From NCBI GenBank assembly GCA_963746845.1, contig CAVVCZ010000006.1, positions 32,001 through 96,000 of the forward strand: a DNA stretch of 64,000 bases. Reading direction: 5' to 3'. The stretch is from an uncultured Chloroflexia bacterium. Lineage in GTDB: Bacteria > Chloroflexota > Limnocylindria > Limnocylindrales > CSP1-4. Of this stretch, positions 2,293 through 19,219 are shown piece after piece. Within the stretch, counting starts at the first letter, position 1. Each line of letters opens with the position of its first letter. The position numbers and the translations under genes are program-made. The notes below the pieces were generated by a model that worked only from the letters and a program-made list of their open reading frames with translations, was not told the origin of the DNA and made no database searches.

Positions 2293-2323
2293 ATCGTCAC
2301 AGCAAACCTGAAATGCGCCGAGC

Positions 2324-3313
2324 TTATTTATTGAGCGAATCGAAAAAGCCGCTCTTTTCCAGTTGATCGACAATCGAAAAGTCGACGAACTGTTCGGGTT
2401 TTGGCAGCGGCTTTTTCCCGGCAAATTGGTTCTCAATCATAAACTGAACCGCTTTGAGCGACGGGCGCGGTGTTTTCTGCAACGTCGGCGCGTAGTCTTG
2501 CCAGGTGCCTTCCAAGATTTCCTCGTCATTGATCTTGCCGTACTTGGCCAAAACTTTTTTGCTGTATTCTTTATCCGTGCGATAGCGCTGCATGCCGCGC
2601 GTGAAGGCGCGCATGAAGCGCAGCGCCGTGTCGCGTTGCTGGGCGACGAAAGCGCGCGTCGTCATCACGGTGCCGTTGATGTCCTCGACACCGAGATCGG
2701 CGAAATTGACCAGCTCGCGCATGCCGCTTTTTATCGCCTTTGGATAGAGTGGATAGCTGAGCGCGGCGACCTGCACGATGCCGTTCATCAACGCAGCGAA
2801 CGCCTCCGGTTGCGCGCCGAAGGTGAGCAGCGCGACATCTTTGCTGGGGTCGAGATTGAACTGCTTGAACGCGATGCGCATGACTTGATCGGAAGTCGAG
2901 CCGAAAGTTGTGATGCCGGCTTTTTTGCCTTTCAAGTCGGACGGCTGCTTGATCTCCGGGCGCGCGATTAGACGGAAGGGCGAGACCGTACCCGTAGAAC
3001 CGATGATCACGACGTCGGCGCCGGCGACGTTGGCGGTGAGCGCCGCAATGGCGCCGGCCTGAATGATCGGCGCGCTGCCGCCAAGCATCGCCGCAACCAT
3101 TCGGCTGCTGCCGCCGACGCGGACGAGTTCGACGTCGAGCCCTTCGGCACTGAAGTATCCGGCTTCCTTGGCGATCCACGCCGTCGCCCAGCTGCCGGCG
3201 AAGCTCGGGTAGAGCAAGCGCATGGGTGTCAGAGTTGTCGCGCAGAATACCGGGTTCGTTAGGCCGCCGATACTTAGGAGCAGGGCAACCAGCGCAATTC
3301 TTGTAACGAACAT
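2324..3313 (-). CDS. ABC transporter substrate-binding protein (SsuA/NMT1/THI5-like)
   Basis: Signal peptide; WIAKEAGYFSAEGLDVELV, DLKGKKAGIT..GS; GGAGGAG RBS. Confidence 0.9.
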   Translation of the reverse strand: MFVTRIALVALLLSIGGLTNPVFCATTLTPMRLLYPSFAGSWATAWIAKEAGYFSAEGLDVELVRVGGSSRMVAAMLGGSAPIIQAGAIAALTANVAGADVVIIGSTGTVSPFRLIARPEIKQPSDLKGKKAGITTFGSTSDQVMRIAFKQFNLDPSKDVALLTFGAQPEAFAALMNGIVQVAALSYPLYPKAIKSGMRELVNFADLGVEDINGTVMTTRAFVAQQRDTALRFMRAFTRGMQRYRTDKEYSKKVLAKYGKINDEEILEGTWQDYAPTLQKTPRPSLKAVQFMIENQFAGKKPLPKPEQFVDFSIVDQLEKSGFFDSLNK

Positions 3314-3457
3314 GGCTCCTCCTGGATTTGTTTACTCTTGGCGTTGGCTTCTTTGGCCAACCCATTGTAGAGATTGTCTCGATTACGACGATGCAGCGCG
3401 ACGATACCTCAAAGACGATGTTGAATAAAAGCGCCAGCGGCGGAAATTGCCGCGCCG

Positions 3458-4648
3458 ATGGCCGCATCCGGCGCGTCATTTGGGCGACAGGTCGCGCCGG
3501 TATTTTTTCTCGCGGCGATCTTTTTACTCAACTTCATCGCGCGGGTGATTCTCTCGCCGCTGTTGCCGACGATTGAAAAGGAGCTGGCGATCGGCCACGG
3601 CCAGGCGGGCTTTTTTTTCTTCTTGATCTCCGCCGGTTATCTCTCGGGTTTGCTCGGTTCGGGATTTCTCTCGTCGCGCACCAGCCATCGGCAGACGATT
3701 CTCCTCTCCGGCACCGGTGTCGGACTGGCGCTGTTCCTGCTCTCCGGCTCGACCAGCCTGTGGGCGATGCGGCTCGGGTTATACGCCTTGGGATTGGCCG
3801 CCGGGCTTTACATGCCGTCGGCGATCGCGACGATCACCGCGCTGGTCGATCAACGCCATTGGGGCAAAGCGATCGCGATTCACGAGCTGGCGCCCAATCT
3901 GGCGTTTTTCACCGGTCCGTTCGTTGCTGAACTATTTCTCCGCCACTCGACTTGGCGCGCCGCGCTGGGGGTGTTGGGGTGCGCCTCGGTGCTGATCACC
4001 ATGAGCTACTATCGTTATGGGCAGGGCGGCCGATTCGCCGGCGAATCGCCGGCGTCGAACGCCTTCGGTGCGCTGGTGCGGACGTCGGCGTTTTGGATCA
4101 TGTTGATTCTCTTCGGCCTGGGCGTCAGTTCGACCGTCGGGATTTATGCCATGTTGCCGCTCTATCTGGTCAGCGATCGCCATGTCGAGGCGAGCTGGGC
4201 GAATACGGTGACGGCCTTGTCGCGTTCCTACGGGCCGGTGTTCGGCATGCTCGGCGGCTGGGCCTCGGACCGGCTCGGGCCGAAGCGGACCATGGTGGTG
4301 AGTTTGATCGTCACCGGCGCTTTGACTTTGCTTTTGGGTTTCGTCGCCGACAGTTGGATCAGTGCCGTGGTGATCATCCAACCGGCCCTCGCCGTGTGGT
4401 TTTTCCCGGCCGGCTTCGCGGCACTAGCAGTGATCGCGCCGCCACAAGCGCGCAATCTCGCGGTCGGCTTCACCATTCCGTTTGGCTATTTGATCGGCGG
4501 CGGGGCGATCCCGACGTTTATCGGCATGATGGGCGACGCCGGACTGTTTGCGCTGGGCTTCACAATCACCGGGCTCTTGATCACTGGCGCCGGCGTTCTC
4601 GCGATGTCGCTCAAGCTGCCGCGCACGATCCAAGGCGGAGCCCACTAG
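3458..4648 (+). CDS. MFS transporter
   Basis: About 12 hydrophobic segments; MFS motif GGWASDRLGPKR. Confidence 0.9.
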   Translation: MAASGASFGRQVAPVFFLAAIFLLNFIARVILSPLLPTIEKELAIGHGQAGFFFFLISAGYLSGLLGSGFLSSRTSHRQTILLSGTGVGLALFLLSGSTSLWAMRLGLYALGLAAGLYMPSAIATITALVDQRHWGKAIAIHELAPNLAFFTGPFVAELFLRHSTWRAALGVLGCASVLITMSYYRYGQGGRFAGESPASNAFGALVRTSAFWIMLILFGLGVSSTVGIYAMLPLYLVSDRHVEASWANTVTALSRSYGPVFGMLGGWASDRLGPKRTMVVSLIVTGALTLLLGFVADSWISAVVIIQPALAVWFFPAGFAALAVIAPPQARNLAVGFTIPFGYLIGGGAIPTFIGMMGDAGLFALGFTITGLLITGAGVLAMSLKLPRTIQGGAH

Positions 4649-4692
4649 TTTTCGGTTGTCAGCGGCGCACCGGCTGTTCTATAAACCGTCAT

Positions 4693-5444
4693 ATGAAGCT
4701 GGACGAGTTCGCTGCGAGGATTCGCGAGAGCGATGAGATCGTGGTTTTTACCGGGGCGGGGATCAGCACCGAGTCCGGCATCCCGGACTTTCGCAGCCCC
4801 GGCGGCATCTGGACGCGCTATCGGCCGGTGACGTTTCAAGAATACATGACCAGCGAGTCGGCGCGCATCGAAGCGTGGAAGCGCCGCCTCGACGGCTGGG
4901 AACAATATAAAAATGCCAAACCCAACGTCGGCCATCATTTTATCCAGGCGCTTAGCTTGAAAGAAAAATTGATCGGCCTGATCACCCAAAATGTCGATGG
5001 CCTGCACAGCATGGCCGGCCTCGCCGACGACAAGATCGTCGAGCTGCACGGCTCGAACCGCAAGATTCTTTGCATGAGCTGCGCCAAGGAATTCGCACCG
5101 GAACCGATCATCAACAGTTTAGTCGGCGATTTCGTCTCGCCCAAGTGCGACAGCTGCGGCGGCATCCTCAAGTCGGCAACGGTGTCCTTCGGCCAAGCGA
5201 TGCCCGAGCAGGCGATGCGTGTAGCACAGGAATGGACCGAGCAAGCGGAAGTTTTCATCGTCATGGGCTCATCATTACAAGTGCAGCCCGCGGCGTCGTT
5301 TCCCGTCATGGCGAAACGCAATGGCGCGCTGTTGGCGATTATCAACCGTGAAGCAGGGCCGCTCGATGACTGGCGGATTTCGTTCACAACGGCGCGATCG
5401 GCGAGTTCTGCGGCAAATTCGGCGAGATGATCGCCGATGGGTGA
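4693..5444 (+). CDS. cobB: NAD-dependent protein deacylase (sirtuin); 1-nt frameshift near 5370
   Basis: GAGISTESGIPDFR, ITQNVDGLH, ELHG, two CxxC pairs, GSSLQVQPA, IINRE; natural C-terminus ADFVHNGAIGEF...* lies in another frame. Confidence 0.9.
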
Positions 5445-5645
5445 CGCGGATTCGGAATGTTGGCCGCAAAGAACACAAAGGGCGCAAAAGTTCGGAACTG
5501 TACGAGTAAATTCACCTCCGAATTTGGCGCACGAAAATTTGCGCAAGCTCGGCAAATAGTAATGTATCCGAAATCCGATCGGAAGTATTTCAGAACCTTC
5601 GTGGTGATAACGACCGAGACTTCCTGGCGACGAAAGGGCAAATTT

Positions 5646-6650
5646 ATGGCTGACTGGAAAATGATCGATGCCGATGGGCATATTCGCGAGGTCGAGAGCG
5701 ATGTCTACGAGTATCTGCCGGATTACTACAAAGCGCGGCGCGAGGCGGTGATGTATTTCCCGTTGCTGCCGCATCATGGCTGGCACCGGCAGGCGGGCCG
5801 GGCGGGGATCGGCGCGTCATTCTTGATCCCCACGTTGCAGGATTGGCAGCAGGCGTTGGATCTCGGAGGGCTCGAAGCGGCGGTGGTTTATCCGACCCGC
5901 TTCATGCATATCGGCCAGGTCGGCATGGCCGACTTCGCGGTGGATTTGAGCAGGGCTTACAACGACTATCTGCACGATCGCTTCCTGCGCCACGAGCCGC
6001 GCTTGAAAGGCATCGCGATTTTGCCGATGCAAGATGTGCCAGCGGCCGTCGCCGAGCTGCGCCGGGTCGTCAAAGACTACGGCATGGTCGGTGCGGTGTT
6101 GCCGGCCGACGGCCTGCCGCGGCCATTGGGCCACCCGGAGTTTCATCCAGTCTACGAAGAGGCCAATCGCTTGGGCTGCATGCTCGCCGTGCATTCGCAG
6201 AATTCATTGCGCAACAATGATTTGTTCATGTGGCGCGGCGAGGCGGCGACGCTGGCCCATGTCTGGCCGCAGATGCGCCAGTTCACCAACTTCATGTTTT
6301 CCGGAATCCTCGGCCGGTTGCCGGATTTGAAAATTGCTTTCTTGGAAGCCGGCTGCGGCTGGGTGCCTTACTTGATGAGTAAAATGGGCAACCGCATGGG
6401 CGAGGCGCCGCCGCCGGCGAAGCTGATCGAGCGCGGGCAGATTTATTTTCAATGCGGCGAAGAGATGACGACCGGGCGGGATTTGGAATTGCTCGGCGAC
6501 GAGTGCTTGTTCTGGGCCTCGGACTTTCCTCATGAAGGTATCGTCAGCATGAAGAAAGCCGTCGACGAGTTTCTCGAGCGCGACGATATCCCGACGGCAG
6601 CGAAGCGCAAGATCAGTTACGACAATCCGAAAAGACTTTACGCGCTCTAA
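5646..6650 (+). CDS. Amidohydrolase_2 family protein
   Basis: IDADGH, AYNDYL, AFLEAGCGW, WASDFPH, NPKRLY. Confidence 0.9.
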   Translation: MADWKMIDADGHIREVESDVYEYLPDYYKARREAVMYFPLLPHHGWHRQAGRAGIGASFLIPTLQDWQQALDLGGLEAAVVYPTRFMHIGQVGMADFAVDLSRAYNDYLHDRFLRHEPRLKGIAILPMQDVPAAVAELRRVVKDYGMVGAVLPADGLPRPLGHPEFHPVYEEANRLGCMLAVHSQNSLRNNDLFMWRGEAATLAHVWPQMRQFTNFMFSGILGRLPDLKIAFLEAGCGWVPYLMSKMGNRMGEAPPPAKLIERGQIYFQCGEEMTTGRDLELLGDECLFWASDFPHEGIVSMKKAVDEFLERDDIPTAAKRKISYDNPKRLYAL

Positions 6651-6656
6651 CGAGCG

Positions 6657-6760
6657 CGTTCCAATCGTTCCAAAGGTTCCAGCAGTTCCAAGTCGTTTGG
6701 AGACTTCAGCAGTTTCCCGAACGATTGGAACCGCTTGGAACATTTGGAACTTTTGGAACG
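6657..6760. repeat. Inverted array of 9-nt units between convergent genes
   Basis: Four GTTCCA-containing units facing four TGGAAC-containing units. Confidence 0.8.
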
Positions 6761-7161
6761 AATCGCGGCCTAGGTGCTGTCACGAATTCTTGCTGGACTT
6801 TTTGCCGGACATCTTTGCGCGTGACGTAGTCGATGATCTGGATATTTTCCGACGGGCCGGAGCGGTTGCCCATCATGATCATCGGTTTGTCGCTGGCATT
6901 TTCCAACTGATAGAACGAGCCGCCGGTGATGGTGGCGGCCATGCCGGGAGTGAGCACGGCTGTGCCGCCGTCGGGGAAGCGCATGGTGCACTCGCCGTCG
7001 ATGACGTAGAAAGTCTGGTCGGCGTTGTGGCAGTGCATGTCGTCTTTGTGACCGGGTTTGTAATAGTGCATCCAGGCGTGGAAGCGCGGCGTGTTGAAAA
7101 TTTCTTTGCGCTTTTTTTCCTGATGGGCGAAATCGACCATGTCGATGACTTCGATGGGCAT
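6706..7161 (-). CDS. Cupin domain protein
   Basis: HCHNADQTFYVIDGE...LTPGMAATI cupin motifs. Confidence 0.8.
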   Translation of the reverse strand: MPIEVIDMVDFAHQEKKRKEIFNTPRFHAWMHYYKPGHKDDMHCHNADQTFYVIDGECTMRFPDGGTAVLTPGMAATITGGSFYQLENASDKPMIMMGNRSGPSENIQIIDYVTRKDVRQKVQQEFVTAPRPRFVPKVPNVPSGSNRSGNC

Positions 7162-7190
7162 TGGCGTGTCCTCCTGTTTTGGGTTTTGGA

Positions 7191-7571
7191 TTAGAGTACT
7201 GCGATCACTTCGATCTGAAACAAATTGTCGCCGCGCAGATCGATTTTGACGGCGTGGCGCGCCGGGCGGTCATGTTCATCGGGAAACATTTTGAGCCATG
7301 CTTTGTTGACCGAATCGCGCAGCTTTTCTTCTTTCAAATAGACCTTCATGTAGGCGATCTGGTCCGGCGTTCCTCCCGCGGTTTCCATAAACAGACGAAG
7401 GTTTCGGAACATCGCTTCGGCCTGCTCGTCGGCATCCGTCGACAGCACGCCGGTCTTGGCGTCCTTGCCGGACAGCGCCGAGGAGAAAACCATGTTGCCG
7501 ATCACCACGCCGTTGGGGATCGGCGCGCCATGTTCCATGCCGGGAATATGAATGCTTTTGCGTTTTGCCAT
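7191..7571 (-). CDS. RidA/YjgF family protein
   Basis: EQAEAMFRNL, RPARHAV, QIEVIA; AGGAGGTG RBS. Confidence 0.85.
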   Translation of the reverse strand: MAKRKSIHIPGMEHGAPIPNGVVIGNMVFSSALSGKDAKTGVLSTDADEQAEAMFRNLRLFMETAGGTPDQIAYMKVYLKEEKLRDSVNKAWLKMFPDEHDRPARHAVKIDLRGDNLFQIEVIAVL

Positions 7572-7716
7572 ACTTCACCTCCTTGTCCGACTCGTTGCCT
7601 TTCTCATAGCACGGCGCCGAATGTTGGTCTACCGCGCCAAGTGTTCACTGGCGCTGTGAAAAAATCGGTGCTATGGGAAAGACCAACCCTCTACACCCAA
7701 GCCGAAGGAGTCGCCC

Positions 7717-8403
7717 ATGGAAGCACTCGCGCAAATTGAAAATGGCCGGACGTTGACCGAACTCGAGGCCTACTTCAAAAAATACTCGGACATGCCGCGC
7801 GAGGTGGTGCTCAAGCATGACCTGTTGCGTGACGGCCATTGGTTCACCGATGCGGCGTTGGAGCTGGCGTCGGATGCGTTGGTCAAGTCCTACCGGCTGT
7901 TTTCCTACGATCTGATGCCGATGAAGGACATGAAGCGCAAGGAGCATCGCAAGATCACCGAGTGGTTCATGATGCGCGGCGGGCCCTATGGCTTGCGGCC
8001 GGTGACGGTGCAGACGACTTTGAATTCGGATTCGCCTTACCTGATCGATGCGGTCGATGGCAAGGCGAAGCTGTTTCTTCAAGGTAAGGAAATTTGCGAC
8101 GTGGCGTTTCCGCCGCCGTTGAAATATTACACGCGCAAGTTCGCCGACGGCACGGCCTATCACGAGATCATCGCCTACGGTTACTTCGTCACGGCGTTCC
8201 GCAATTGCCAATATTGGGGGCCGGATGAGGAGTGCCGCTTCTGCGATATCAATATCAATGCCCGGCAGATGAAAGATTCGCAAGACTTCACCTTCAATCC
8301 ACCGGTGAAGCCGCTGGACTACATGGTCGAAGTGGCGCGTTCCATCGAGCAGGACGCCACCGACGAGGTCGGCTACACGAGGAGCCTTGGACCGCCGTCT
8401 TGA
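7717..8403 (+). pseudogene. Radical SAM-like protein, truncated at about 8380
   Basis: C-x7-C-x2-C motif (NCQYWGPDEECRFC) lies only about 55 aa before the stop, so the barrel is missing. Confidence 0.65.
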
Positions 8404-8720
8404 GGCAAGCAATCTCCGATCTTACCGGCTTGAGGCTTCGCATGGAATCAGCGTACCGCCCCGGTCAGCGCGCGGGGAAGGCACACCAGGCGCGATATTT
8501 TGCCCGCCTATGGTTTTTATCCGACAATCACCAACCATGCTCTTTCAAGTGAGTCTGCGATCATCTCGAACGTGATGCGCCATCGTTCCGCCGCCGGCTC
8601 TTTGAGATCGTCGACGGATCTCCGGAAGTCGCGGATAGAATACCGATTCAGCTTGAAGCTTTTTTGGCTGAGGAAGAAGAGGATAAGGAAAACGGCGCCC
8701 AGCCTACTTTACGCAGCCTG
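8380..8720 (+). pseudogene. Fragment of a hypothetical protein with no start codon and an internal TGA
   Basis: One frame reads WTAVLRQAISDL..ARLWFLSDNHQPCSFK*VCDHLERD..FRRRL. Confidence 0.4.
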
Positions 8721-9233
8721 ATGAGTAATCGAGGGCGTGTCGTTCGGAAGGTCGTCGATAAAATTTTCCGCTTCACGGTAGAGGATAAACCGATTGAATT
8801 TGCCAGCAACCCACATCATGAGGGCGACAAAGCCCGCCACAATGACAAGTATGGGTGAGTTAGATGTCATGATCCACATCCCGTCGCCGGCTGTCTTGTG
8901 CATCATGCGAACCAGCTCGCGAGACGCTTCGCGTCGAAACCTGTCGGCATTATGCTCGTGACCGCAACTTTGGTTGCGAATCATGAACCAGACAAAAGAA
9001 AGTAGGCTGATGGAGGGGACCACAGCCACGGTTTTGCAAATAAAACCTTCGACTTCGCGGTAGGAATACGACTCGTAATCTTCTTTACGATCGATCGCCA
9101 ACCGGCGCAACTCATCTCTCCGGGCAAACAACCGAAAGCGGACGGAGGTGATGAGCACCGGATGTACGACGTGCCAATAGAACGAGCTGACAATGCAGCA
9201 CGCAAAAAACGTCACAATTAAATGAACTGCCAT
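8709..9233 (-). CDS. Hypothetical membrane protein
   Basis: 174 aa, about 3 hydrophobic segments, 2 bp downstream of the upstream gene. Confidence 0.65.
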   Translation of the reverse strand: MAVHLIVTFFACCIVSSFYWHVVHPVLITSVRFRLFARRDELRRLAIDRKEDYESYSYREVEGFICKTVAVVPSISLLSFVWFMIRNQSCGHEHNADRFRREASRELVRMMHKTAGDGMWIMTSNSPILVIVAGFVALMMWVAGKFNRFILYREAENFIDDLPNDTPSITHQAA

Positions 9234-9235
9234 CT

Positions 9236-9589
9236 TTATTCCCTCGGTCGCGTGAGCAACTGGATCTGTAGATTATCTCGTTCTTGGGCCACTCTCTTCA
9301 ACTCCTTTTCGTAAAACCGCATCAAAAGTTTAATCAACACAACTCCGGCAATCAGTTCTATGAGTGCCAATATCCAGCCCGTGATCGCCCAACTATTGGA
9401 TTCAACGAGAATCTTGACAATTTGAGGGACGTCTTTGGAGTCCGCTCTGATCATCGCTGTAATAAGAACCAGCCCGACTACGATGATCGAAAGATTTTTC
9501 GAGGTAAGAACCGGTTGTCCAGTGCGCTCGCTGGACTGCATAGGCCTAGCCGGCTGCGGTGTTTCCAAAGCCGTTGAGGCTATGCCCAT
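9236..9589 (-). CDS. Hypothetical two-TM protein with coiled-coil tail
   Basis: Two hydrophobic helices, then YEKELKRVAQERDNLQ. Confidence 0.65.
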   Translation of the reverse strand: MGIASTALETPQPARPMQSSERTGQPVLTSKNLSIIVVGLVLITAMIRADSKDVPQIVKILVESNSWAITGWILALIELIAGVVLIKLLMRFYEKELKRVAQERDNLQIQLLTRPRE

Positions 9590-9699
9590 AGTACAGGTCC
9601 AGTGCGTAAGTCAACAGATATAAATTCGATGGGGCAATGTCAATGCTCTGTCGCTGCGGGGGCAAGCGTCCGGTCTTGGCCCCGAGATTGAAGTCCCTC

Positions 9700-10242
9700 T
9701 CATGTGGCCGCACGGATGCCCGTCATGCGTTCGCAGAACTCATCTGGTACTTTCGGGGAGGTAGCGACCATAAGGGTCAACATCCCCACAGCAAATAGAT
9801 ATCTGATTCGTGAAGAACTTTCGACCGGCTCGCTCGCCGCCTCGTGGCCGACTCCAGCGTCGACTATCTGGATCGCCGTGCACCAGTCGCTTACCGGCGA
9901 AGAATCGAACGTTGCGTCCCAGATGTGATGTGCAAAGTGATTCCGTACCTTGCGAACCAGGTCCATATCTCGAGCCAGGGGCTCGGTTATAATTCCAAGT
10001 GCCGCCGCTAACGAGATCTTAGCACCGAAAGAGCTTAACGCGCCTTGTCCGACGAACATAGTTTCGAGTCGAGTGCTCGGAATAAGGCAGCTCCGAATCG
10101 CTGCCTCCACAACTGCGTCGAGAAAGCCACCCGCGAGTACCGCCGCGGCGCGATCAGTCTCCTTGTGGAAGCGGCCCACAAACTCATTATAGGAGGAGGC
10201 GTCCAGTGATCGAATATTCGTTGCCTTTGTCATGTCATTCAT
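9700..10242 (-). CDS. MtlR-family (HEPN-like) protein
   Basis: ETDRAAAVLAG..GALSSFGAKI..LVRKVRNHFAH with an intact RxxxxH motif. Confidence 0.75.
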   Translation of the reverse strand: MNDMTKATNIRSLDASSYNEFVGRFHKETDRAAAVLAGGFLDAVVEAAIRSCLIPSTRLETMFVGQGALSSFGAKISLAAALGIITEPLARDMDLVRKVRNHFAHHIWDATFDSSPVSDWCTAIQIVDAGVGHEAASEPVESSSRIRYLFAVGMLTLMVATSPKVPDEFCERMTGIRAAT

Positions 10243-10331
10243 CCGCCCGGCTAATCAACGAACCAGCTCAAGCCATCGGCGCCGGCGTAGTAGGCACAGT
10301 CCCGAATCTTTTGCCCGTGGATCGCAAATTC

Positions 10332-10634
10332 TTATCGCCGCCGATAAGGCGATTTCGTTGTTTCCCGTTCAATAACTCGCTCAGTTTCCTCCCGCTCGCG
10401 CAGAAGTTCAGGGTAACAAGTGTCGACGATCAGCCGGGCGAGCTCCAGACCGATCAACTCGGCTACCTCGCGGTCCTCCAACTCGAAGTTGTGTACGTTC
10501 AGGGTGGTTAGCTCGACCACTGAATTGTCCGGGCGCTGATTCAAAACGCAAGCACCGGGCGTCGAGTTATTGCCGCCGGGATAGCCGGGAGTGGCATCGC
10601 CGGAAATCCAAAGGTCTTTGTATTGTTCCATCAT
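10332..10634 (-). CDS. Hypothetical protein
   Basis: 100-aa ORF with protein-like composition. Confidence 0.55.
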   Translation of the reverse strand: MMEQYKDLWISGDATPGYPGGNNSTPGACVLNQRPDNSVVELTTLNVHNFELEDREVAELIGLELARLIVDTCYPELLREREETERVIERETTKSPYRRR

Positions 10635-10681
10635 GGCGCTGGATCTCGAGGCGTTCGTGCTTTTCGTATGCCTGCGCTACA

Positions 10682-10924
10682 TCAACGCGACTCTATTTTG
10701 AACCAGTCGAGCAGACCTATGAGAAGCCTCCGGCCTGTCTGATTGATAAGTGTAAAATACCCGACGATTATAAAAGACGTGATCTTTAGAACGATTCTCA
10801 AAAATCGACTTTTAATCTCGTCGATCAAGCCGTAAACAAGCACAAGAAGAGCGGCGAATACGAATGCAAAAAATTGCCAGCTCTCAGCACCGCGGATAAC
10901 ATCAATAGCGAGCTTTTCTGTCAT
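10682..10924 (-). CDS. Small membrane protein
   Basis: 80 aa, two TM segments, GAGGGAG RBS, directly downstream of motif copy A1. Confidence 0.7.
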   Translation of the reverse strand: MTEKLAIDVIRGAESWQFFAFVFAALLVLVYGLIDEIKSRFLRIVLKITSFIIVGYFTLINQTGRRLLIGLLDWFKIESR

Positions 10925-10943
10925 TCAATGACTCCCTCAGGGC

Positions 10944-10973
10944 CTTCTACCGCACGGCACAGAGACAAAGCAA
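10944..10973 (-). promoter_or_regulatory. 30-bp repeated promoter-like motif, copy A1
   Basis: Minus strand TTGCTT-N18-TAGAAG; near-identical copies at 11716, 11994, 12514. Confidence 0.6.
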
Positions 10974-10989
10974 CCAGAGCAACCGCTAC

Positions 10990-11019
10990 TTGCTTTCTAT
11001 CTCAGACATCGGGTAGAAA
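10990..11019 (+). promoter_or_regulatory. Divergent promoter-like element
   Basis: TTGCTT-N18-TAGAAA upstream of the ORF at 11043. Confidence 0.45.
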
Positions 11020-11042
11020 ATCCAAGTAAGAGACGGATCGCG

Positions 11043-11342
11043 ATGAAACTAAGTCAAAAAACATGGTGGCAACCGAGTTGGCGATATGAAACCGGTAACA
11101 GTGACCCCGTTCCGGCCGCAGTGGCTACCGAATACGGCATCTTGCGAAGGTGCTCGATTGTGGCGGGGAGCTTGATTATGAGTGTCGACTGCAAAGGCAA
11201 ATCCGTTCGCGGCCGTATTGGTCTCTCGGTTAATGCACCACTCTTGGACAGAGTTCTAGTCTTCCTTCGAGCCTACGAAGGCGACTCCATTGAATCAATC
11301 GAAAACCTTGAGATTGAAGAGAACCAGTTCGGTACTCCTTGA
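11043..11342 (+). CDS. Hypothetical protein
   Basis: 99-aa ORF between a promoter-like element and a hairpin. Confidence 0.6.
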   Translation: MKLSQKTWWQPSWRYETGNSDPVPAAVATEYGILRRCSIVAGSLIMSVDCKGKSVRGRIGLSVNAPLLDRVLVFLRAYEGDSIESIENLEIEENQFGTP

Positions 11343-11361
11343 TTGAAAGATAGACAAGCAG

Positions 11362-11385
11362 GCGCCGAGCCCGAAGACCCGGCGC
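11362..11385 (-). terminator. UUCG-tetraloop hairpin, probable intrinsic terminator
   Basis: Minus strand GCGCCGGGTC-TTCG-GGCTCGGCGC followed by a T-rich tail, just after the stop at 11393. Confidence 0.7.
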
Positions 11386-11392
11386 TACCAAG

Positions 11393-11611
11393 CTACTTGC
11401 GACGTTTCTTGACGAGTTTCTTCTTTCCGCGGCGCGTAAGGACTTCGAGTTGCTTAGCCCCCATATCCGCTAGGATAGAAGCAAAGGCCTTCGTGATCGG
11501 TGCCAGTAGCACTGCGCAGCCCAGTTTTTTGCTCCCGATCGCCCACTTCAGAAGTTCAATCAAATGACCGTTGAGCTGTACAAGTCGCGCGAGATTCACT
11601 GCGTCGCTCAT
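11393..11611 (-). CDS. 72-aa helical protein with basic tail, copy 1
   Basis: MSDAVNLARLVQLNGHLIELL...RRGKKKLVKKRRK; GGAAGGA RBS; paralog at 12189-12407. Confidence 0.7.
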   Translation of the reverse strand: MSDAVNLARLVQLNGHLIELLKWAIGSKKLGCAVLLAPITKAFASILADMGAKQLEVLTRRGKKKLVKKRRK

Positions 11612-11691
11612 AAAATGGTTCCTTCCGCGCCGTTTCCGGCCAGAACAAAGAGGGCACCAAGGATCGCCAAGACTGAGAGGAAACTCTGCAT
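11608..11691 (-). CDS. 27-aa hydrophobic leader peptide coupled to the 72-aa gene
   Basis: MQSFLSVLAILGALFVLAGNGAEGTIL*; GAGGTG RBS; ATGA overlap with the next start. Confidence 0.5.
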   Translation of the reverse strand: MQSFLSVLAILGALFVLAGNGAEGTIL

Positions 11692-11715
11692 CGTAGTCAC
11701 CTCTCGCGGAGCGTT

Positions 11716-11745
11716 CTTCTACCGCACGCCACAGAGATAAAGCAA
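11716..11745 (-). promoter_or_regulatory. 30-bp motif, copy A2
   Basis: Plus strand CTTCTACCGCACGCCACAGAGATAAAGCAA. Confidence 0.6.
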
Positions 11746-11881
11746 CCGGGAGCCTTCTCCTTTTTATGTCAGATTTCTGACACATAAATTATGGACCCGG
11801 ATCGTGGCGCCTCCCAATTTCTAATAGAATTTTACCTCGAAGCCGTTCGCACCGGCGCCGGCATCTGTTACCATTTTCTTT

Positions 11882-11965
11882 GTGAAGTTCTGGCAAATTA
11901 TCGTTTTTATCTTTGGCGTGGTTCTGCCTATTCTTTACATTGTCTATGTTTTGATCTTTGAATAG
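11882..11965 (+). CDS. 27-aa single-TM peptide, paralog 1
   Basis: GTG start, MKFWQIIVFIFGVVLPILYIVYVLIFE*; TGTTACCAT 7 nt upstream. Confidence 0.7.
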   Translation: MKFWQIIVFIFGVVLPILYIVYVLIFE

Positions 11966-11993
11966 AAACCGGACGCCGTATAACATGCGCTGC

Positions 11994-12023
11994 CTTCTAC
12001 CGCACGTCACAGAGATATAACAA
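11994..12023 (-). promoter_or_regulatory. 30-bp motif, copy A3, pointing antisense into peptide 1
   Basis: Plus strand CTTCTACCGCACGTCACAGAGATATAACAA. Confidence 0.6.
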
Positions 12024-12067
12024 TTGGGCGCTAGTTGTACCCCCGAGGCAACTGTTACCATTCCTTT

Positions 12068-12151
12068 GTGGATTTCCGAACACTACTCGTAATCCTCTTT
12101 GGAATAGTTCTGCCGGCTCTTTTCATTGCCTTTTACTTGATCAGCCCCTAG
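12068..12151 (+). CDS. 27-aa single-TM peptide, paralog 2
   Basis: GTG start, MDFRTLLVILFGIVLPALFIAFYLISP*; TGTTACCAT 6 nt upstream. Confidence 0.7.
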   Translation: MDFRTLLVILFGIVLPALFIAFYLISP

Positions 12152-12156
12152 AGCAA

Positions 12157-12182
12157 GGCGCCGAGCCCGAAGACCCGACGCC
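12157..12182 (-). terminator. UUCG hairpin terminator, copy 2
   Basis: Minus strand GGCGTCGGGTC-TTCG-GGCTCGGCGCC between convergent ORFs. Confidence 0.7.
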
Positions 12183-12188
12183 ACCAAG

Positions 12189-12407
12189 CTAATGGCGACG
12201 CTTCTTGACGAGTTTCTTCTTTCCGCGAGGCGTATCAACAGGGAGTTGCTTAGTCGCCATTTCTGCTAGGATCGAAGCAAAGGCCCTCGTGATCGGTGCT
12301 AGTTGCGCTGCGTAGTCTAGTTTGTCGGTCTCCATCGCCCACCTCAGAAGCTCGATCAAATGATCGTTGAGCTGTACAAGTCGCCCGAGATTCACTGCGT
12401 CGCGCAT
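12189..12407 (-). CDS. 72-aa protein, copy 2
   Basis: MRDAVNLGRLVQLNDHLIELLRW...PRGKKKLVKKRRH; same length as copy 1. Confidence 0.7.
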   Translation of the reverse strand: MRDAVNLGRLVQLNDHLIELLRWAMETDKLDYAAQLAPITRAFASILAEMATKQLPVDTPRGKKKLVKKRRH

Positions 12408-12513
12408 AACATGGTGTTCCTTCCGCGCCGTTTCCGGCGAAAACAAACAGGGCACCAATGATCGCCAAGACAGAGAATAAACTCTGCATCGTAGTCACGC
12501 CTCAAGGAGCGTT

Positions 12514-12543
12514 CTTGTACCGCACGTCACAGAGATAAAGCAA
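12514..12543 (-). promoter_or_regulatory. 30-bp motif, copy A4
   Basis: Plus strand CTTGTACCGCACGTCACAGAGATAAAGCAA. Confidence 0.6.
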
Positions 12544-12595
12544 TCCGGCGCCAGTTGTCCTGGCGCGCTATCCTCTGTTACCATTTTGCTTGATT

Positions 12596-12676
12596 ATGCT
12601 CTCGTCAACTATCGTGATTTTGCTTGGCGCGGTTCTGCCCGTTCTTTTCGTTGTCTATATTTGGTTCTTTGCATAG
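12596..12676 (+). CDS. 26-aa single-TM peptide, paralog 3
   Basis: MLSSTIVILLGAVLPVLFVVYIWFFA*; upstream TTGTCC-N18-TACCAT with TG extension; hairpin downstream. Confidence 0.7.
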   Translation: MLSSTIVILLGAVLPVLFVVYIWFFA

Positions 12677-12826
12677 AGCGGGCGCCGAGCCTAAGCCCGC
12701 GGGTGCGTGAGCCCATGAACTGATTTTAGCTTCCGGATGCCGACAGTCGCGTAAATCTCCTTCGTTGAGATGCTCGCATGACCGAGTAGTTGTTGAATCA
12801 CTCGTATATCGGAGCGAACCGCCTTT

Positions 12827-13699
12827 GTGGCGATCGTTTCGGCTTACCTTGTCGAATCGGTGGTAACCGGCAAGAGTAAGAAGCGCCTGGACGCGCTCGA
12901 AATAAATTTCCGCCGTTTCATCGTTCCCCACTTTGGCGAGAATACCGCAGTCACTGCCATCACTCACACGCAAGTCGAGTATTTCATCAGCGTACAGACC
13001 CAGCGCGGGGTAAAGAATTCGACGGTCTGGCACTATGTCTCGGACCTTCGCGCCTGTTTGAATTACGCCATCAGGAAGGATTGCTGCGAGATAACCCGGT
13101 GAAGCGTGCCGACAAAACCAGAATCATGAACCGCAAGGTGATCAAGCCCCCGCTCGATCCTCATGCCGTCGACCTGGCGGCCGAAGCGATCGCGCACCCC
13201 GTTGACAGGGCTTGGTTTAACGTCGTTCGATTCGTCGGCTTGCGCAAGGATGAAGGCAATCGGCCCGAATGGTCAGACATCAATTTCGAACTGGCAATAC
13301 ATTCGAGGCAGCAAGACCGAAGGGGCCGACGTTTGGTTACCGCTGGCGCCGATCGCGCTGCACACCTTGCGCGAATTGAGAAAGATCAGCGACCCCAAGA
13401 ACCCGCTGATATTCCCGGGAAGGTCGGCACAGAGCAAAGGAAAGAAAGACTACGAGTGCGGCCTGATGTTCAAGAAGATCTTGAAGAAGACCGGCATCAC
13501 GCTTATGCCGAAGGATCTCCGTGATTACTTTTGCAATGAGGTAGCCGCACCCACGCGAGACCCCGCCGTTCTCATGCGCTTGATGCGTCATCAGTCCTTG
13601 GAAACAACGACAAAGTACCTGCGCACCGTACCGGAACGCATGGAGGATGCTGTCAAGAATCTGGGGCGAGCTTTGGTGGTGGATTCGATTCAAATCTAG
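12827..13699 (+). pseudogene. Tyrosine recombinase/integrase split over three ORFs
   Basis: N-terminal core-binding region, GLRKDE (R), GSKT (K), KDLR, LMRH, TTKY (Y); frameshifts near 13085 and 13297. Confidence 0.85.
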
Positions 13700-13758
13700 T
13701 GCAGAAAGCGACGGAAAACGACAATGCGCCAGAAAATATTGTTGCATTGAATGAGGGT

Positions 13759-15288
13759 TCAACTACGCGAAATAGTTCGGTGAATGTGGACGGCATTGGG
13801 ACCAGTCAAGACGCTATCGACATGCCACATGGCCAGGCAATCGTCTTGGTTGTAGATCAGCGCGCGGTCGATGGCGAACAGGTCGGTGTTTTCCAGATAA
13901 TCCCAGTAGCAGACCATGGACTGATAGGCGCCGATGTCTTTCTGGCGCCAGTGAAAGCCCAGGGCGGGGGCGACGGATTTGATCGAGAAGGTCGGCACGG
14001 GCAGGTAGACGGCGGCCTGAATCGCTGCTTTCAAGTCGACGCATTTGGCGACGATCTGTTCGATCGAAGCGGACAGCAGTGGCCAGCGGCGGGCGACGCG
14101 GTGCATCTGGTGAATTTCAAAGTCGGTCCAGTGATACAAGCAAACATCGCGCGGGTCGCCGACATAGTCGAAGAACTCGGTGAAGATGCGCGCTTCATCG
14201 GCCGCGCCACGGGCGAGAAACTTGACGAATTGATCGCGGCTGCCGTCGTAACAGCCGATGAGATAGGTGTGCGGCGGCTCGCTCGGATGGATTGCATCGG
14301 AAGTTTCGAAATCGAAATAGAGCAGACGCTTGGCGCGCGGGATATCGAGCTCGCGGCCGGGCCGCAAAAGCGGGCCACCGAATTTGTAGGCCTGGCTGAC
14401 ATGGTGCGCGATCTCGCCATAATGTTCGCCGATTATTTCCACGAGTTCTTCCTGCCGCAGGTTCCATGCTTGATCGACTCTGTGAATTCCGGCGCGGCGC
14501 AGCTTGTCGCGTTCGCGCTTGGTGAGGCCGGCCAACAAGATCAGGTCGCGCTCGTCGCTGGCGCGCTGGTTGGCGTAGAGGCGCCAAGGCGAACTCGCTG
14601 CGTTGGGTGGACGATTCATTTCGGGGATGACGCTGCCGTTTCGCAATTCATTCCAAAACTGGCGCGCTGCGACAACCTCTTCGGCTTTTTCGGAAAAGGC
14701 AACAGTTGTTTCGCTGTCTTTGAGAACGATGGTGAACTCGTCGGGCACGAGGCCCTGAAGCTTGCCGATGTTTTCATTGTAGAAAGCGCCTTGGAGCGCG
14801 TGGGAAGCTTGCAGAGACTGCGATCTTTTGATTTCGATGACGCGGTAGTGAAATGGCCCGAGATCCGACGGTGCCGAATCGTCGCGAATCAGTAAGTCGC
14901 CTTTTCCGTAGATCGTCTGCGCTAAATCCCACAGCTGGGGTTGATAAATTGCCCGCGGGCCGGCGAGCAGGGCGCGGCAAGTATTTTTCAGCGCCTCGAA
15001 CCCGAAGCCCGGTGTGATTTCCATGGCATCGGGATAGTTGCTTTTAACCCAGCGCCGCTCGTAGTCGACGCCCTGCTGCATGCGCAGTCTTTCATAGCGC
15101 GTGGTTTCATCGACGGCGGCACTTTTCGGCGCATGATGTTCGCACCAGAGCCAGAAGGGATCTTTGAGCAGGTAGTAGCTGTGCGAGGGGCGAAAAAGGT
15201 TGTGGCGGTTGAATTTCTGCCCGGCGGTGGCGCGCTGGATCAATGCCTCAAGGGTGACTTTTGCCGTTGTCGTCATTCGACTATCCAC
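13759..15288 (-). CDS. TM0106-family RecB-like nuclease with RNase H-like C-terminal domain
   Basis: GKGDLLIR..YRVIEIKRS (PD-(D/E)xK), YFDFET, FSIKSVAPALGFHW, YNQDDCLA. Confidence 0.85.
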   Translation of the reverse strand: MDSRMTTTAKVTLEALIQRATAGQKFNRHNLFRPSHSYYLLKDPFWLWCEHHAPKSAAVDETTRYERLRMQQGVDYERRWVKSNYPDAMEITPGFGFEALKNTCRALLAGPRAIYQPQLWDLAQTIYGKGDLLIRDDSAPSDLGPFHYRVIEIKRSQSLQASHALQGAFYNENIGKLQGLVPDEFTIVLKDSETTVAFSEKAEEVVAARQFWNELRNGSVIPEMNRPPNAASSPWRLYANQRASDERDLILLAGLTKRERDKLRRAGIHRVDQAWNLRQEELVEIIGEHYGEIAHHVSQAYKFGGPLLRPGRELDIPRAKRLLYFDFETSDAIHPSEPPHTYLIGCYDGSRDQFVKFLARGAADEARIFTEFFDYVGDPRDVCLYHWTDFEIHQMHRVARRWPLLSASIEQIVAKCVDLKAAIQAAVYLPVPTFSIKSVAPALGFHWRQKDIGAYQSMVCYWDYLENTDLFAIDRALIYNQDDCLAMWHVDSVLTGPNAVHIHRTISRS

Positions 15289-15289
15289 C

Positions 15290-16060
15290 CGCCAACAGAT
15301 ATCTGCTCACGATTGGAAAAATTTATCGGCGGCGTCGATATGGACCCAATGGCCGGTGTTGGCGGACGACCAGGCCATTCGGGAAGCGCTCGCGGATTTC
15401 CGGAATGTTTGTCATGGGCAATGAAATTTGACCGGCCCGCTCGAATGAAGCAAGTTTGGCTAGAGACGGCGCCATCGGCGCTGAACGCTTCAGTAAGCGC
15501 ATCATAATTTGCGATAATCTCTTCCAAGCCGATGCGCCAATGGAATCATGCATCCGTACCGCAGGCGAGATTGGCAATCAAGAACTGGCGTAGCGTCGGT
15601 TCCGGAATGTTTCCTGTGTGCGCCCGGTCGGCGTCGCTGGAGGTCTACCCGCTTGCGAGCGTAAGCGCCTCTAGGCGGCAGCGGGCTTATGCGCGGCGGG
15701 CTTCGGGCGCGATGTCGACTACGACTAGCCCATTGATGGAACTGGCGTTGACCGCGGCGCATTGCCGGGCCACCTTGCCGACCATGGAGTGGCCGCATAG
15801 ATGGGCACGATCGAGTTCTCGCGGCAAAAAATTCTCTCACATCCTTCGCCATGGCGCATGATGCGTCACCGGATGATGCGCTGAGGCGCCGTGATTTCTC
15901 AAATCTAAATCATAGACTTTGAAGTAGACAGCGAGCCGCTTGACGATGGCGCGCCAATTGTCGGTCGCGCCGAGAAAGCCTGCAGGGTGATCCTCGGGAC
16001 ACCGATCCCTTGGACTTGGAAGTTGAGACGGATGGTTCTGGTTGTGGCGGGCGGCCGACG
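15290..16060 (-). pseudogene. Decayed YbfF-like alpha/beta hydrolase (esterase)
   Basis: Colinear fragments in different frames: GFLGATDNW, DLRNHG, MAKDV, GHSMVGKVA, VVVDIAP, FIRAGRSNFI, GHWVHIDA. Confidence 0.75.
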
Positions 16061-16214
16061 AAACTCTGCCAAGATCGGGAGCAAGGAAGCGCCGCGAGGC
16101 GCTCAAGTTCGAAGAGAGTTGCGAAGGAATCGTTGAGGCGGGGGGTTAACAACGCGCTGGCGATCGCAAAGGAGAGTAGCGCTAGTATGTCGGTTGCCGT
16201 GAAACGAGCCGTGA

Positions 16215-17837
16215 TCAGCCGCCGACTCGCGCCACGGCGTCGCCGCGGATATATCCTGGCGGCCGGCCATGTTTGGAGTGAATCTCCAGCCAGCCATCGC
16301 GGGAGTTGACGACGTTTACTTTAAGGCCGGCTTCGATCTCGCCCAGTTGCTGGGCAAACTCTGTAGGCGCGGCGAAGACCCGGGTGCTGCGAGTGACTTC
16401 GTAAGTGCCCGCGGCTGCCTCCGGCTGTATTTTGGTTTGTCTTGCCGGGTGCGCCGTCGCTGTCTCGTTGGCCTTGCCGACCGGGGTCGCCGAAGCGACC
16501 GCATCGCCAGCGGGCGCGCGCTTCAGTTGGACCGGCGTCGGCGCGGCTTTTTTCTCCGGACCGGCTAGCGCCAACGGTTTGGCGGCGTGGATAACCGGCT
16601 GCTCGCCGCTCTGGCTCCAGAACAGCGCCGCCATGGCAGCGCACACCACCAGGGCAATCAAAGCGTGGAAGATACCGAGGCCGCGTTTGGCCTGGGGTGC
16701 TAATTCTTGGTTGACGGGGTCGGTACGGACCGATGCCGTCGCGGCATGGTGGCTGTCGCTACCGTTGTTTGACGCCGCCATGTGCAGCAACGCTGCCGGC
16801 GCGACCGTGTCCGGCTCGGATTGGAGATCGAATAATGTCGGCGCGGCAATGGTGCCGTCGTGGGACGCCGAGATAAATTGCGCGAAGGCTTTTAGCTCGC
16901 CATGATAGGCGCGTTGATGCTCGATGATCGAGCTTTGTTTGGCGACCAGCTGATCGTAAACCGGCTGCAGGGCGAGCAGGCGATGCTTGATTTCTTCGCT
17001 GGCGGCGATCCGCTCTTGCCATTGAGGAATCTCATCCTCGCGCCGCCGCAGTGAGTCGCGCAGCTCGCGCTCCAGCTTCTCCGATTCGCGGATGCGCTGC
17101 TGCAGAGTGTCGAGCTGGCGGGTGATTTCGGCGCCGGCGCGCAAGTCTTTTTCCAACTCGGCGATTCTCGCCTGGAGCCTTTGGCTTTCTTCCTGGTGGC
17201 TGGCTTCGTTGGCGCTCGCATCGGCCACGGGCGTAGGCGAGTTTTCCAGTTGGCGAACTTTTGACTGGCTTTTTTCCAATTGCTGTTTCAAATCGATGAG
17301 CGCGTTTTCCAACTGCGTCTGCCGTTCGCCGGCGCCACTGTCGACGACGCTGGCATTCTGGACTTTAGCTTCGCTCTCCTGCAGCTGGCGGCGCAGCTCT
17401 TGCACTCGAGCGTCGAGTTGGGTGTTGGCGCTGCGTAACTGTTCCACCTGGGCGAGTGTCGTGTCGTTTTCGGCCGCGGGCTTGCCGGTGCGAAGTTCGT
17501 CGATGGCCCGGTGGGCGGCTTCCAAATCGTCTTGCAACAAGGCCATTTCTTTTTTCAGCTCTTGGTTATTGGCGCGCAGGCCGGTGACCTCGGCGCCGTT
17601 GCCGCCGGCTTCGCTGCTCGCCGGGGCGGACGCCATTGGGGCGTCTTCCAAGCGGGTCAAAAGGTCGTTGATTTCGCCGCGTTTTTTCTTGAGCTCTTTC
17701 TCGGACGCGACCAAGAATAGGCCGAGCAACAGTACCGTCGCTCCTGAAAACAATACGATCCAGAGGAACATGCTCTCCATAGCGATCTCCCGTCGAGTTT
17801 GAGGCTGAATTTGATGACTGAATAACGCTAAACTCAT
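16215..17837 (-). CDS. Membrane-anchored coiled-coil protein with C-terminal SH3-like domain
   Basis: N-terminal TM, long heptad-rich region, second TM, KVNVVNSRDGWLEI..GYI; true start possibly at MESM near 17780. Confidence 0.75.
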   Translation of the reverse strand: MSLALFSHQIQPQTRREIAMESMFLWIVLFSGATVLLLGLFLVASEKELKKKRGEINDLLTRLEDAPMASAPASSEAGGNGAEVTGLRANNQELKKEMALLQDDLEAAHRAIDELRTGKPAAENDTTLAQVEQLRSANTQLDARVQELRRQLQESEAKVQNASVVDSGAGERQTQLENALIDLKQQLEKSQSKVRQLENSPTPVADASANEASHQEESQRLQARIAELEKDLRAGAEITRQLDTLQQRIRESEKLERELRDSLRRREDEIPQWQERIAASEEIKHRLLALQPVYDQLVAKQSSIIEHQRAYHGELKAFAQFISASHDGTIAAPTLFDLQSEPDTVAPAALLHMAASNNGSDSHHAATASVRTDPVNQELAPQAKRGLGIFHALIALVVCAAMAALFWSQSGEQPVIHAAKPLALAGPEKKAAPTPVQLKRAPAGDAVASATPVGKANETATAHPARQTKIQPEAAAGTYEVTRSTRVFAAPTEFAQQLGEIEAGLKVNVVNSRDGWLEIHSKHGRPPGYIRGDAVARVGG

Positions 17838-18099
17838 GCCACTTGACGCAAGGCTAGTTACCTAGAGACAAGCAAGGTAGTTCCGGAGATCATTCGATAC
17901 TTTGCCAGACAGTTTTCCGGGTATTCCGGCTGAACAGAGCTGCACAAATCGGTGAATCGTTACGAAAACTGTTTAGCTATGTCTGCGTTGCCCGCGGCAG
18001 CAGCGCTGGTTCCGAGGAAAAAAACTCGCATCGTCTGGCAGATCGCTGGCGCTATGAGCGTCGTTGGGCTAAGAAAAATTACCCCAAGATGTCCTTCCA

Positions 18100-19005
18100 T
18101 GATCCCGCAATCTCAAACCGCCACGCCGCCAAAGAATCTATCCATCGCCGAAGAGCGGGCGATCCTTTCGGTGACCTGTCTGGCGGCGTTTCTATTCTTC
18201 AACAGTTTTGGCAGCATCAGCGTCGCCCTACCGGCGATTCAGAAACAATTTGGCAATAGTTTGTCGGAGATTCAGTGGGTCACGCTGATGGGCGTGGTGA
18301 CGATCTCCAGCTTGTCGTTCTGTTTCGGCCGTGCCGGCGGTATTCTCGGCCAGCGCCGGCTCTACAAGATCGGTGTGGCGCTTTATGCCGCCGGCGCCGG
18401 CTTGGGCGCGCTGGCGCTGTCGTTTCCACAGCTGCTGATCGCGCGCGCGGTGATGGCGGTTGGGCTGGCGATGGCGTTGCCGATGTCGACGGCGTTGTTG
18501 GCCGGCAGTTTCGCCGCCGCGCGGCGCGGCCAGGTGCTGGGCACCTTCGCCTCGGCTATCGCCGTCGGGCGCATGTCTGGGCCGACCGTCGGCGGCTTGC
18601 TCTTACAAATGGGCGGCTGGACCTGGATCTTCTGGATGAATTTTGTCGTCGGCTTGGCGGTGACGTTGGCGGTGGTGAAAATTTTTCGCGGCGCCGGCGA
18701 GCAACGGCCGGAGAAATTCGACATCTGGGGCTCGTTGGCCTTACTGCTTGGCTATCCGTCGCTGTTGATCGGCTTGAGTTTTGGCGCCCGCCTCGGTTGG
18801 AGTTCGTTGCCGGTGATCCTGTGCTTTGCCGTCGCCACGATTGGGCTGGTGGGTTTCGTCGGCATCGAACTGCGCACCGCGAAGCCGTTGGTCGATGTGG
18901 CGATTTTTCGCAATAAAATGCTGTCCGCGGCTATCGTCGCGCTGATCCTCAGTCATATGCTCCACAATCCGATCGCCTTGGCGGCGCCGCTTTATTTGCA
19001 AAACG
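18100..19005 (+). CDS. DHA2-type MFS efflux transporter, truncated at the junction
   Basis: ISVALPAIQ, RRGQVLG, GWTWIFWMN, PLVDVAIFRN; hydrophobic pattern stops at PLYLQNV. Confidence 0.85.
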
Positions 19006-19219
19006 TGAAGAGGTCGAGCGGGCGGCCTCCGAGACGGGCGATCAAGTCGTCGATGACCGGCTCGAAGACGGCGTCGACACCACCTGCCTTGCTCAGCGCA
19101 TTGCCGAAGTCGAACAGGATCGTCCGTTCGATCGGCTGGCCGTTCTCGGTATCCGGGATCGAGACAAGGATCGCGTCGCCGAAGCGCACGTCGTAGGCCC
19201 GGACGATCAGCTCGCTCAT
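19005..19219 (-). CDS. ComEC-like MBL-fold hydrolase, N-terminal fragment cut at the junction
   Basis: VRAYDVRFGDAILVS..ILFDFG..RPLDL; ends just before the expected HxHxDH; ATGA overlap with the upstream peptidase. Confidence 0.75.

Follow-up and report, generated by a model that had tools for sequence, protein, structure and literature searches.

Among the closest described systems to the peptides reported here are the toxins of type I toxin-antitoxin loci. Fst/Ldr, Ibs, ShoB, DinQ and TisB, as treated in sections of PMC8309996, are alike in size, in a single hydrophobic helix with a mid-helix proline, in having multiple copies per genome and in their mobile context. The same sections place an APxxxG motif in the helix of the Fst/Ldr toxins, whereas the present peptides have the order GxxLP, with no charged strip, leader, Shine-Dalgarno (SD) sequence or LexA box; excerpts of PMC6733600 name a non-translatable primary transcript as a major hallmark of type I loci. 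The accessory proteins of phages and satellites and the superinfection-exclusion proteins are, according to parts of PMC9122126, likewise small membrane proteins from high-turnover loci of 1–5 kb near integrases, and a three-gene system in a P2-like hotspot, a TIR protein with two membrane proteins, is shown there to be anti-phage. The present peptides are much shorter than superinfection-exclusion proteins and match no Imm, PADLOC or PHROG profile. Finally, Arp, Dcr and Rip, which come from random libraries, are likewise hydrophobic peptides of the membrane, short and with little demand for sequence identity in their function: in portions of the respective papers, hydrophobic peptides of random origin act through Rcs to block phage adsorption (PMC12557735), a random membrane peptide activates a sensor kinase via its TM domain (PMC7790251) and random hydrophobic peptides partly depolarise the membrane (PMC6550523). 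Those peptides are synthetic, whereas the ones described below form a natural family with its own promoters, and no homology is implied.

Small membrane peptides carried by mobile DNA are a known kind; this family of them is new. A preliminary description, made from the DNA sequence alone, had not recognised the family, and the searches agree: the peptides have no meaningful match in the six databases searched (Pfam, NCBIfam, PHROGs, PADLOC, PDB sequences and Rfam), and neither a Pfam scan of 10 members nor a PADLOC scan of the three original peptides gives a match to PF14373 or to a defence protein. Photosystem II PsbM is the best PDB sequence match, through a common GxxLPxLF pattern, but this is no evidence of kinship, the E values of 0.3–1.8 being at chance level for an apolar helix. 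The literature search, with supplements and database contents outside its scope, returned no description of the peptide family or of small proteins in the lineage, and the text of the sORFdb paper (PMC11796252) does not mention the lineage.

Three short genes and their promoters

Throughout, the window is the whole 64-kb stretch of DNA that was analysed. Three open reading frames lie on its plus strand where the preliminary description had placed them: peptide 1 at 11882..11965 (27 aa), peptide 2 at 12068..12151 (27 aa) and peptide 3 at 12596..12676 (26 aa from its ATG). Peptides 1 and 2 start with GTG and peptide 3 with ATG, preceded by an in-frame TTG at 12590; all three end with TAG. They lie inside a duplicated module of about 800 bp, together with a 72-aa gene on the other strand. 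As had also been claimed, the same extended -10 box precedes each one on the plus strand: TG-n-TACCAT at 11865..11874 for peptide 1, with the start codon 7 nt downstream, then 12052..12061 for peptide 2 (6 nt) and 12575..12584 for peptide 3 (11 nt to the ATG). This sequence, CTGTTACCAT, has exactly three occurrences in the window, at 11865, 12052 and 12575; with one mismatch allowed, the shuffle expectation is 0.54, and 3 of 100 shuffles reach three. Because the three copies are 65–74% identical as DNA, the box is shared partly by descent, and its real support comes from homologues, in which the sequence changes while the T-A---T pattern and the distance are kept. A reading of the box on the reverse strand, as ATG GTA ACA G, was ruled out, since homologues change the hexamer and lose the ATG.

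Among the 14 copies of the family (three in the window and 11 described below), TAnnnT ends 6–8 nt before an ATG or GTG in 10. For peptide 3 an ATT, aligned with the other starts, stands 8 nt beyond its end, with the ATG one codon later; of the remaining three copies, two carry TTCCAT at 7 nt and the third is without a box. The -10 hexamer takes seven different sequences, and TG precedes the box in 11 of the 14. As background, 12 of 262 ATG or GTG codons in the island show the TAnnnT spacing, a count in which the real starts are included. The earlier statement that SD sequences are missing is correct for the whole family (AGGA, GGAG, GAGG or AAGG in 0 of 14 copies, with 16 nt upstream scanned). 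From this geometry the start codons are predicted to lie at the mRNA 5' end. The proposal that the genes are leaderless is thus supported by a -10-to-start distance conserved in homologues but needs an exception for peptide 3, whose ATG stands 11 nt from the box: its leader would be about 4–5 nt, so that it is not strictly leaderless.

The lexA promoters of the lineage have the arrangement TTGACT-17-hexamer-6 nt-ATG in all four matches read, and a -10 box followed 6 nt later by the start is therefore normal in the lineage. These lexA genes (L072-L075) look leaderless themselves and look autoregulated by the palindrome TACT(G/A)AAA..TTT(C/T)AGTA; about 40 nt upstream of the lexA match, it sits between TTGACT and the -10 box and is a candidate LexA box for the group. 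In front of recA, 250 nt of sequence showed no perfect form of this candidate. In the peptide-2 subtype, a different inverted repeat (AGTTG-N10/11-CAA(C/T)T) overlaps the promoter spacer, at window positions 12036-12058 and in loci L035, L044 and L046, and is a possible operator.

Family membership and selection

The search for homologues began with the adjacent 72-aa gene (16 proteins, the query among them, at an E value of at most 0.01) and then covered the family (90 genomes) and order (123 genomes) of G001, a delta-proteobacterial MAG. The claim that the peptides form a family is borne out by 11 further copies in five genomes (five in G001, three in G047 and one each in G052, G032 and G049), which gives 14 in total with the window. 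These genomes are 5 of the 123 in the order, and all five fall within the 90 of the family. The weakest accepted copy is that of G049 (E 0.048), and three homologues were recovered solely by a hydrophobic profile. The copy on contig C19 of G001 is a 51-aa form extended by a frameshift; a sixth copy in G001, truncated to 16 aa, is not counted among the 14. A class-wide sample of 401 genomes yielded no clear additional copy.

Six matches were returned by a profile search of 1.84 billion representatives. In four of them the gene call is too long and has the peptide as its last part, and the family thus escapes standard annotation; the other two are C-terminally extended variants, one of which nearly equals the 51-aa form, so that the frameshift in G001 is probably natural. 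The database match P0029 reads through the stop. A tblastn search of peptide 2 against 50,697 phage records found nothing, and viral contigs have no match to the leftward promoter motif or the 72-aa protein described below. Judged by these sequence searches, the family is real but narrow. Several weak profile matches were dropped: L039-L041 (3 of the 14 rows of one search) and L071, and, in the class-wide search, 10 rows at E 0.01-0.1; eight of these were read, L039 among them, and the other two, L111 and L112, fall inside frames of 912 and 2034 aa. L109 and L115 are short ORFs with partial resemblance to the peptides.

On sequence comparison, each window peptide is nearer to a copy in another genome than to its window neighbours. 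Peptide 1 has an orthologue on contig C12 of G001, with 92% DNA identity over the gene and its flanks; peptide 2 has orthologues in G052 and G047 (70-85% amino acid identity, vs 38-44% to its window neighbours); and peptide 3 has one on contig C3 of G001. Since the nearest relatives lie elsewhere, the three appear to be old subtypes gathered by cassette shuffling. The preliminary description had spoken of a family amplified on a mobile island: a variable low-GC island with integrase remnants is present, but for the same reason amplification in place is only partly right.

G12 is kept in 14 of 14 copies and P16 in 13. Selection was tested on the 13 normal-length copies, the 51-aa and truncated ones being left out. 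Peptide lengths are 26-32 aa, no D, E, K, R, N, Q or H occurs at residues 7-24 in any of the 13, and the lowest mean hydropathy over these residues is 2.45. Neutral simulation on the nucleotide tree (length 3.55) gives an expectation, at full branch length, of 16-39 such charged or polar residues, and 0 of 2000 runs reach the observed residue count or the minimum hydropathy; at half the branch length, P is 0.0005-0.011. The hydropathy test is biased in favour because three copies were found only by the hydrophobic profile; its result persists when the two most distant copies are dropped. Hydrophobicity, whose loss at homologous loci would have counted against the preliminary description, is thus preserved in 13 of 13 copies, and chance is rejected by the simulation.

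Substitution patterns are less uniform. The second codon position varies least (41, 23 and 47 states at the three positions). Calculation of dN/dS, proposed as a check on the first description, gives a divided answer: the four-member peptide-2 subtype has an omega of 0.42 (2dlnL 4.1), but the family-wide maximum-likelihood omega of 0.80 (13 copies) or 0.875 (11 copies) is not different from 1 (2dlnL 0.5-1.3). Close pairs with peptide 1 and with peptide 3 show few changes, with pN about equal to or above pS. Within subtypes, the NG86 ratio is lowest in the sense frame (0.39, vs 0.59-1.77 in other frames); over all 78 pairs, the sense frame (0.55) is no lower than two antisense frames (0.48 and 0.50), and at this depth the frame test therefore does not discriminate. 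Absence of stops is weak evidence alone (P 0.015-0.30). Of 15 copies, two are altered, by the 16-aa truncation and the 51-aa frameshift extension, and another is without a promoter. Selection thus appears to keep an apolar helix with a G/P kink while letting I, L, V and F exchange freely, and the genes are very probably real and selected.

The island, its neighbours and the origin of the contig

The assembly that contains the window (G000) has a GC content of 70-72%, while the start of contig C6, from position 1 to about 51,000 (window 1-19,000), has 52-60% and is the only long stretch of such composition in G000. Window positions 504-8372 and 15414-19007 are syntenic with G001 and 95-97% identical to it, and the first 16 kb of C6 match G001, G047 and G052 at 85-98%. 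In all five genomes tested, the best matches end at 19007 or one base earlier, inside an MFS gene; from 19009 onward the DNA matches G000's own genus, not G001 or G052. None of the 40 relatives of G000 searched with the peptide profile gives a match. Because the matches stop at 19007 and each side matches a different lineage, the contig is almost certainly chimeric, the junction at 19007..19008 between foreign DNA of 52-60% GC on the left and host DNA of 71% GC on the right being most likely an assembly artefact, and the peptides almost certainly come from an organism closely related to G001, their DNA being foreign to the host of the assembly. We tentatively take the gene content of G001 to be Binatia-like. 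Anything found at the start of contig C6 would be assigned to the wrong organism.

The fusion places about 51 kb of G001-like DNA (C6:1-51007), joined in the middle of the MFS gene, in a genome rated 92% complete and 0.25% contaminated. Between window positions 4600 and 19000, several genes are split by frameshifts (Sir2-like, radical-SAM-like, integrase and MFS), as happens when error-prone long reads are assembled; for the radical-SAM-like gene, similarity to G001 stops at 8372, the island's edge.

The island itself extends from about 8.4 to 13.7 kb of the window, has 51-54% GC and is closed by a tyrosine recombinase (12827..13699, plus strand) that has SAM_5 and catalytic domains and is broken up by frameshifts. 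In a check for integron features, the integrase matches SAM_5/Phage_integrase and generic PHROG integrases, and genes with promoters of their own occur on either strand. Reading of the loci revealed no phage structural genes. A 30-nt promoter-like motif, read leftwards as TTGnnn-18-TAGAAG, occurs four times on the minus strand: at 10944..10973, before an 80-aa membrane ORF (10682-10924); at 11716..11745, upstream of copy a of the 72-aa gene; at 11994..12023, divergent from peptide 2 and pointing antisense across peptide 1 from 28 nt after its stop; and at 12514..12543, divergent from peptide 3. In most of the instances read, an SD-led or leaderless ORF comes after it, a different one from place to place, and so the motif behaves as a promoter. 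The second recurrent part is a GC-rich end element, found as a hairpin after copy a (11361..11385), as a hairpin with a UUCG loop on the minus strand between peptide 2 and the 72-aa gene converging on it (12157..12182), and, after peptide 3, as a variant with the palindrome CCCGCGGG (12681..12712). Peptides 2 and 3 and several homologues have it directly 3' of their stop codons. Both promoter motif and end element recur at scattered sites in G001, G047 and G052.

Alternative joins in other sequences show that these parts are shuffled. All three peptides are missing from locus L001 and from one contig of run X1, in both of which 11628 is fused to 12693; a second X1 contig joins 11748 to 12047; and a 269-nt X1 contig with nine differences spans peptide 1 into peptide 2 (run X1 may not be independent of the source sample). 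The syntenic site in G001 holds one different, mosaic copy. The copies on contigs C3 of G001 and C3 of G047 lie less than 1 kb behind tRNA-Ala and tRNA-Met, respectively. Locus L052 (3995-4981 and 714-992/3814-4137) has an integrase, not close to that of the window, adjoining a tRNA-Leu with a duplicated tRNA end, and other small genes at this locus are driven by the promoter and end elements described above. The window also contains a terminator-like hairpin (11748-11767) and a palindrome, TGTCAG..CTGACA (11768-11783), between the leftward promoter and peptide 1.

Copies a (11393..11611) and b (12189..12407) of the 72-aa gene, both on the minus strand, encode proteins that are 72% identical. 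Copy b, which converges on peptide 2, belongs to no known family: the protein has no Pfam or PHROG match and no Foldseek match at E 0.001 or better, and its model is a hairpin of two helices (pLDDT 84); the tail is strongly basic. The ESM Atlas yielded no usable match to it or to a 31-aa member of the peptide family, a result that speaks for neither absence nor novelty. The stop of a 27-aa hydrophobic ORF (11608..11691, minus strand) overlaps the start of copy a. This ORF is the surviving first half of a separate, unnamed family of 48-60-aa two-helix membrane proteins, seen elsewhere in L049 (~7291-7437), L053 (~10768-10950), L056 (~7435-7585) and L060 (~6947-7093). A 100-aa ORF at 10332-10634 (minus strand) recurs at 75-87% DNA identity in islands L002, L049, L050, L052 and L053.

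Defence genes are found near the peptides in two neighbourhoods. In the window, two minus-strand genes match components of the PADLOC 2TM/1TM/TIR anti-phage system, 2TM at 9236..9589 (E 1e-12) and 1TM at 8709..9233 (E 2e-11), with no TIR gene recognised after the 1TM gene; the PADLOC models presumably derive from the three-gene system of the P2-like hotspot. In G047, an Imm_superinfect gene (PF14373, E 2e-19; L054:7260-7583, minus strand) lies between the tRNA-Met and the peptide and converges on the latter. The neighbours of other copies are metabolic or regulatory, including a histidine kinase/response regulator pair and an ABC substrate-binding gene, and because these are ordinary the link to defence is suggestive only. 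At L050:3153-4433, about 1.7 kb from a family peptide, there is also an AAA ATPase with weak similarity to PADLOC IetA (E 8e-9).

Possible roles of the peptides

The explanation we prefer, tentatively, is that the genes encode accessory, single-pass inner-membrane peptides that modulate the envelope, possibly against phages. These lineage-restricted genes of 26-32 codons would each have an extended -10 promoter to themselves and be expressed from it as an mRNA with no leader or almost none; without a leader, translation would follow transcription directly, with no RNA safety catch and no SD to hide. Cassettes of promoter, gene and end element would travel on small integrative elements and their remnants, and would be swapped by recombination at the common promoter and end sequences. 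The apolar helix, kinked at G12-x-x-L-P16, may pack against some protein of the host's inner membrane, for example a sensor kinase, a transporter or a component of phage entry, causing a tolerated, non-lethal change in the envelope that would most plausibly lower infection by competing phages, in a mode resembling superinfection exclusion or 'moron' cargo. The cargo context is the reason for ranking envelope modification against phages first.

It is unlikely that the peptides are instead the depolarising toxins of type I-like addiction modules, silenced by antisense RNA and stabilising the mobile island, although the comparison drawn in the preliminary description holds for size and hydrophobicity (26-32 aa, below the 60 aa of type I membrane toxins, with hydropathy of at least 2.45 and a predicted membrane location), and the several divergent copies per genome and the mobile context fit as well. 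A promoter-like motif pointing antisense from 28 nt after the stop would suit a silencing RNA, but a narrow scan for TTG-starting sigma70-like sites within 250 nt finds it at only 2 of 14 loci, peptide 1 and its orthologue on G001:C12, a single inherited arrangement, and no antitoxin RNA is matched in Rfam. Nor would the predicted transcripts have a 5' leader with an SD to occlude, whereas the excerpts of PMC6733600 make a non-translatable primary transcript a hallmark: the -10 box lies 6-8 nt before the start codon, and SD motifs occur in 0 of 14. Sequestration of the start is not consistent (first 12 nt compared with shuffles, 3'-to-5' pairing), and the PxxxG of the Fst/Ldr motif is found in 0 of 13 peptides. 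No copy has a cationic C-terminus, a feature that IbsC, ShoB and DinQ are also without in the sections of PMC8309996. A scan for a LexA box of the form CTGA-N8-TCAG, with one mismatch allowed, hits two of the 14 loci, once downstream and once at -85, and never over a promoter; the lineage form, CT(G/A)A-N8-T(C/T)AG, was taken from the four lexA promoters. Because the type I hallmarks mostly fail, a tolerated, partner-binding peptide fits better.

Such a partner might have nothing to do with phages: the peptides could be physiological modulators of host transporters or two-component kinases, in the mode of MgrB, MgtS and AcrZ, merely spread by mobile DNA. This is rather unlikely, in that no neighbour is common across the subtypes and the distribution is patchy (5 of 90 family genomes, these being incomplete MAGs) with fast turnover; a purely apolar helix with a conserved G/P face would nevertheless suit a protein partner, some copies adjoin the histidine kinase/response regulator pair or the ABC substrate-binding gene, and the AGTTG-N10/11-CAAYT repeat over the promoter of one subtype could be an operator. 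The least probable account treats the ORFs as passengers, weakly selected or untranslated copies of an ancestral hydrophobic ORF that drift along with the promoter and end elements. An overall omega near 1 and the truncated, extended and promoter-less copies would be expected of passengers, but over a nucleotide tree length of 3.55 the copies have retained hydrophobicity, G12, length and the distance to the start, and the -10 hexamers have been rewritten yet retain T-A---T.

The family offers a natural, divergent set of 26-32-aa peptides for testing minimal membrane helices as defence or envelope modifiers, and it also suits a test of whether toxin-like peptides can be run from leaderless mRNA. 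A bolder form of the proposal, which we regard as doubtful, is that peptides of about 27 residues stand alone as anti-phage or envelope-remodelling agents on leaderless mRNAs in shuffled cassettes, or else as type I-like toxins without a leader. Were the former true, few known defence genes would be as short, and nature would supply an equivalent of the random hydrophobic peptides with which phage adsorption has been blocked in laboratory work.
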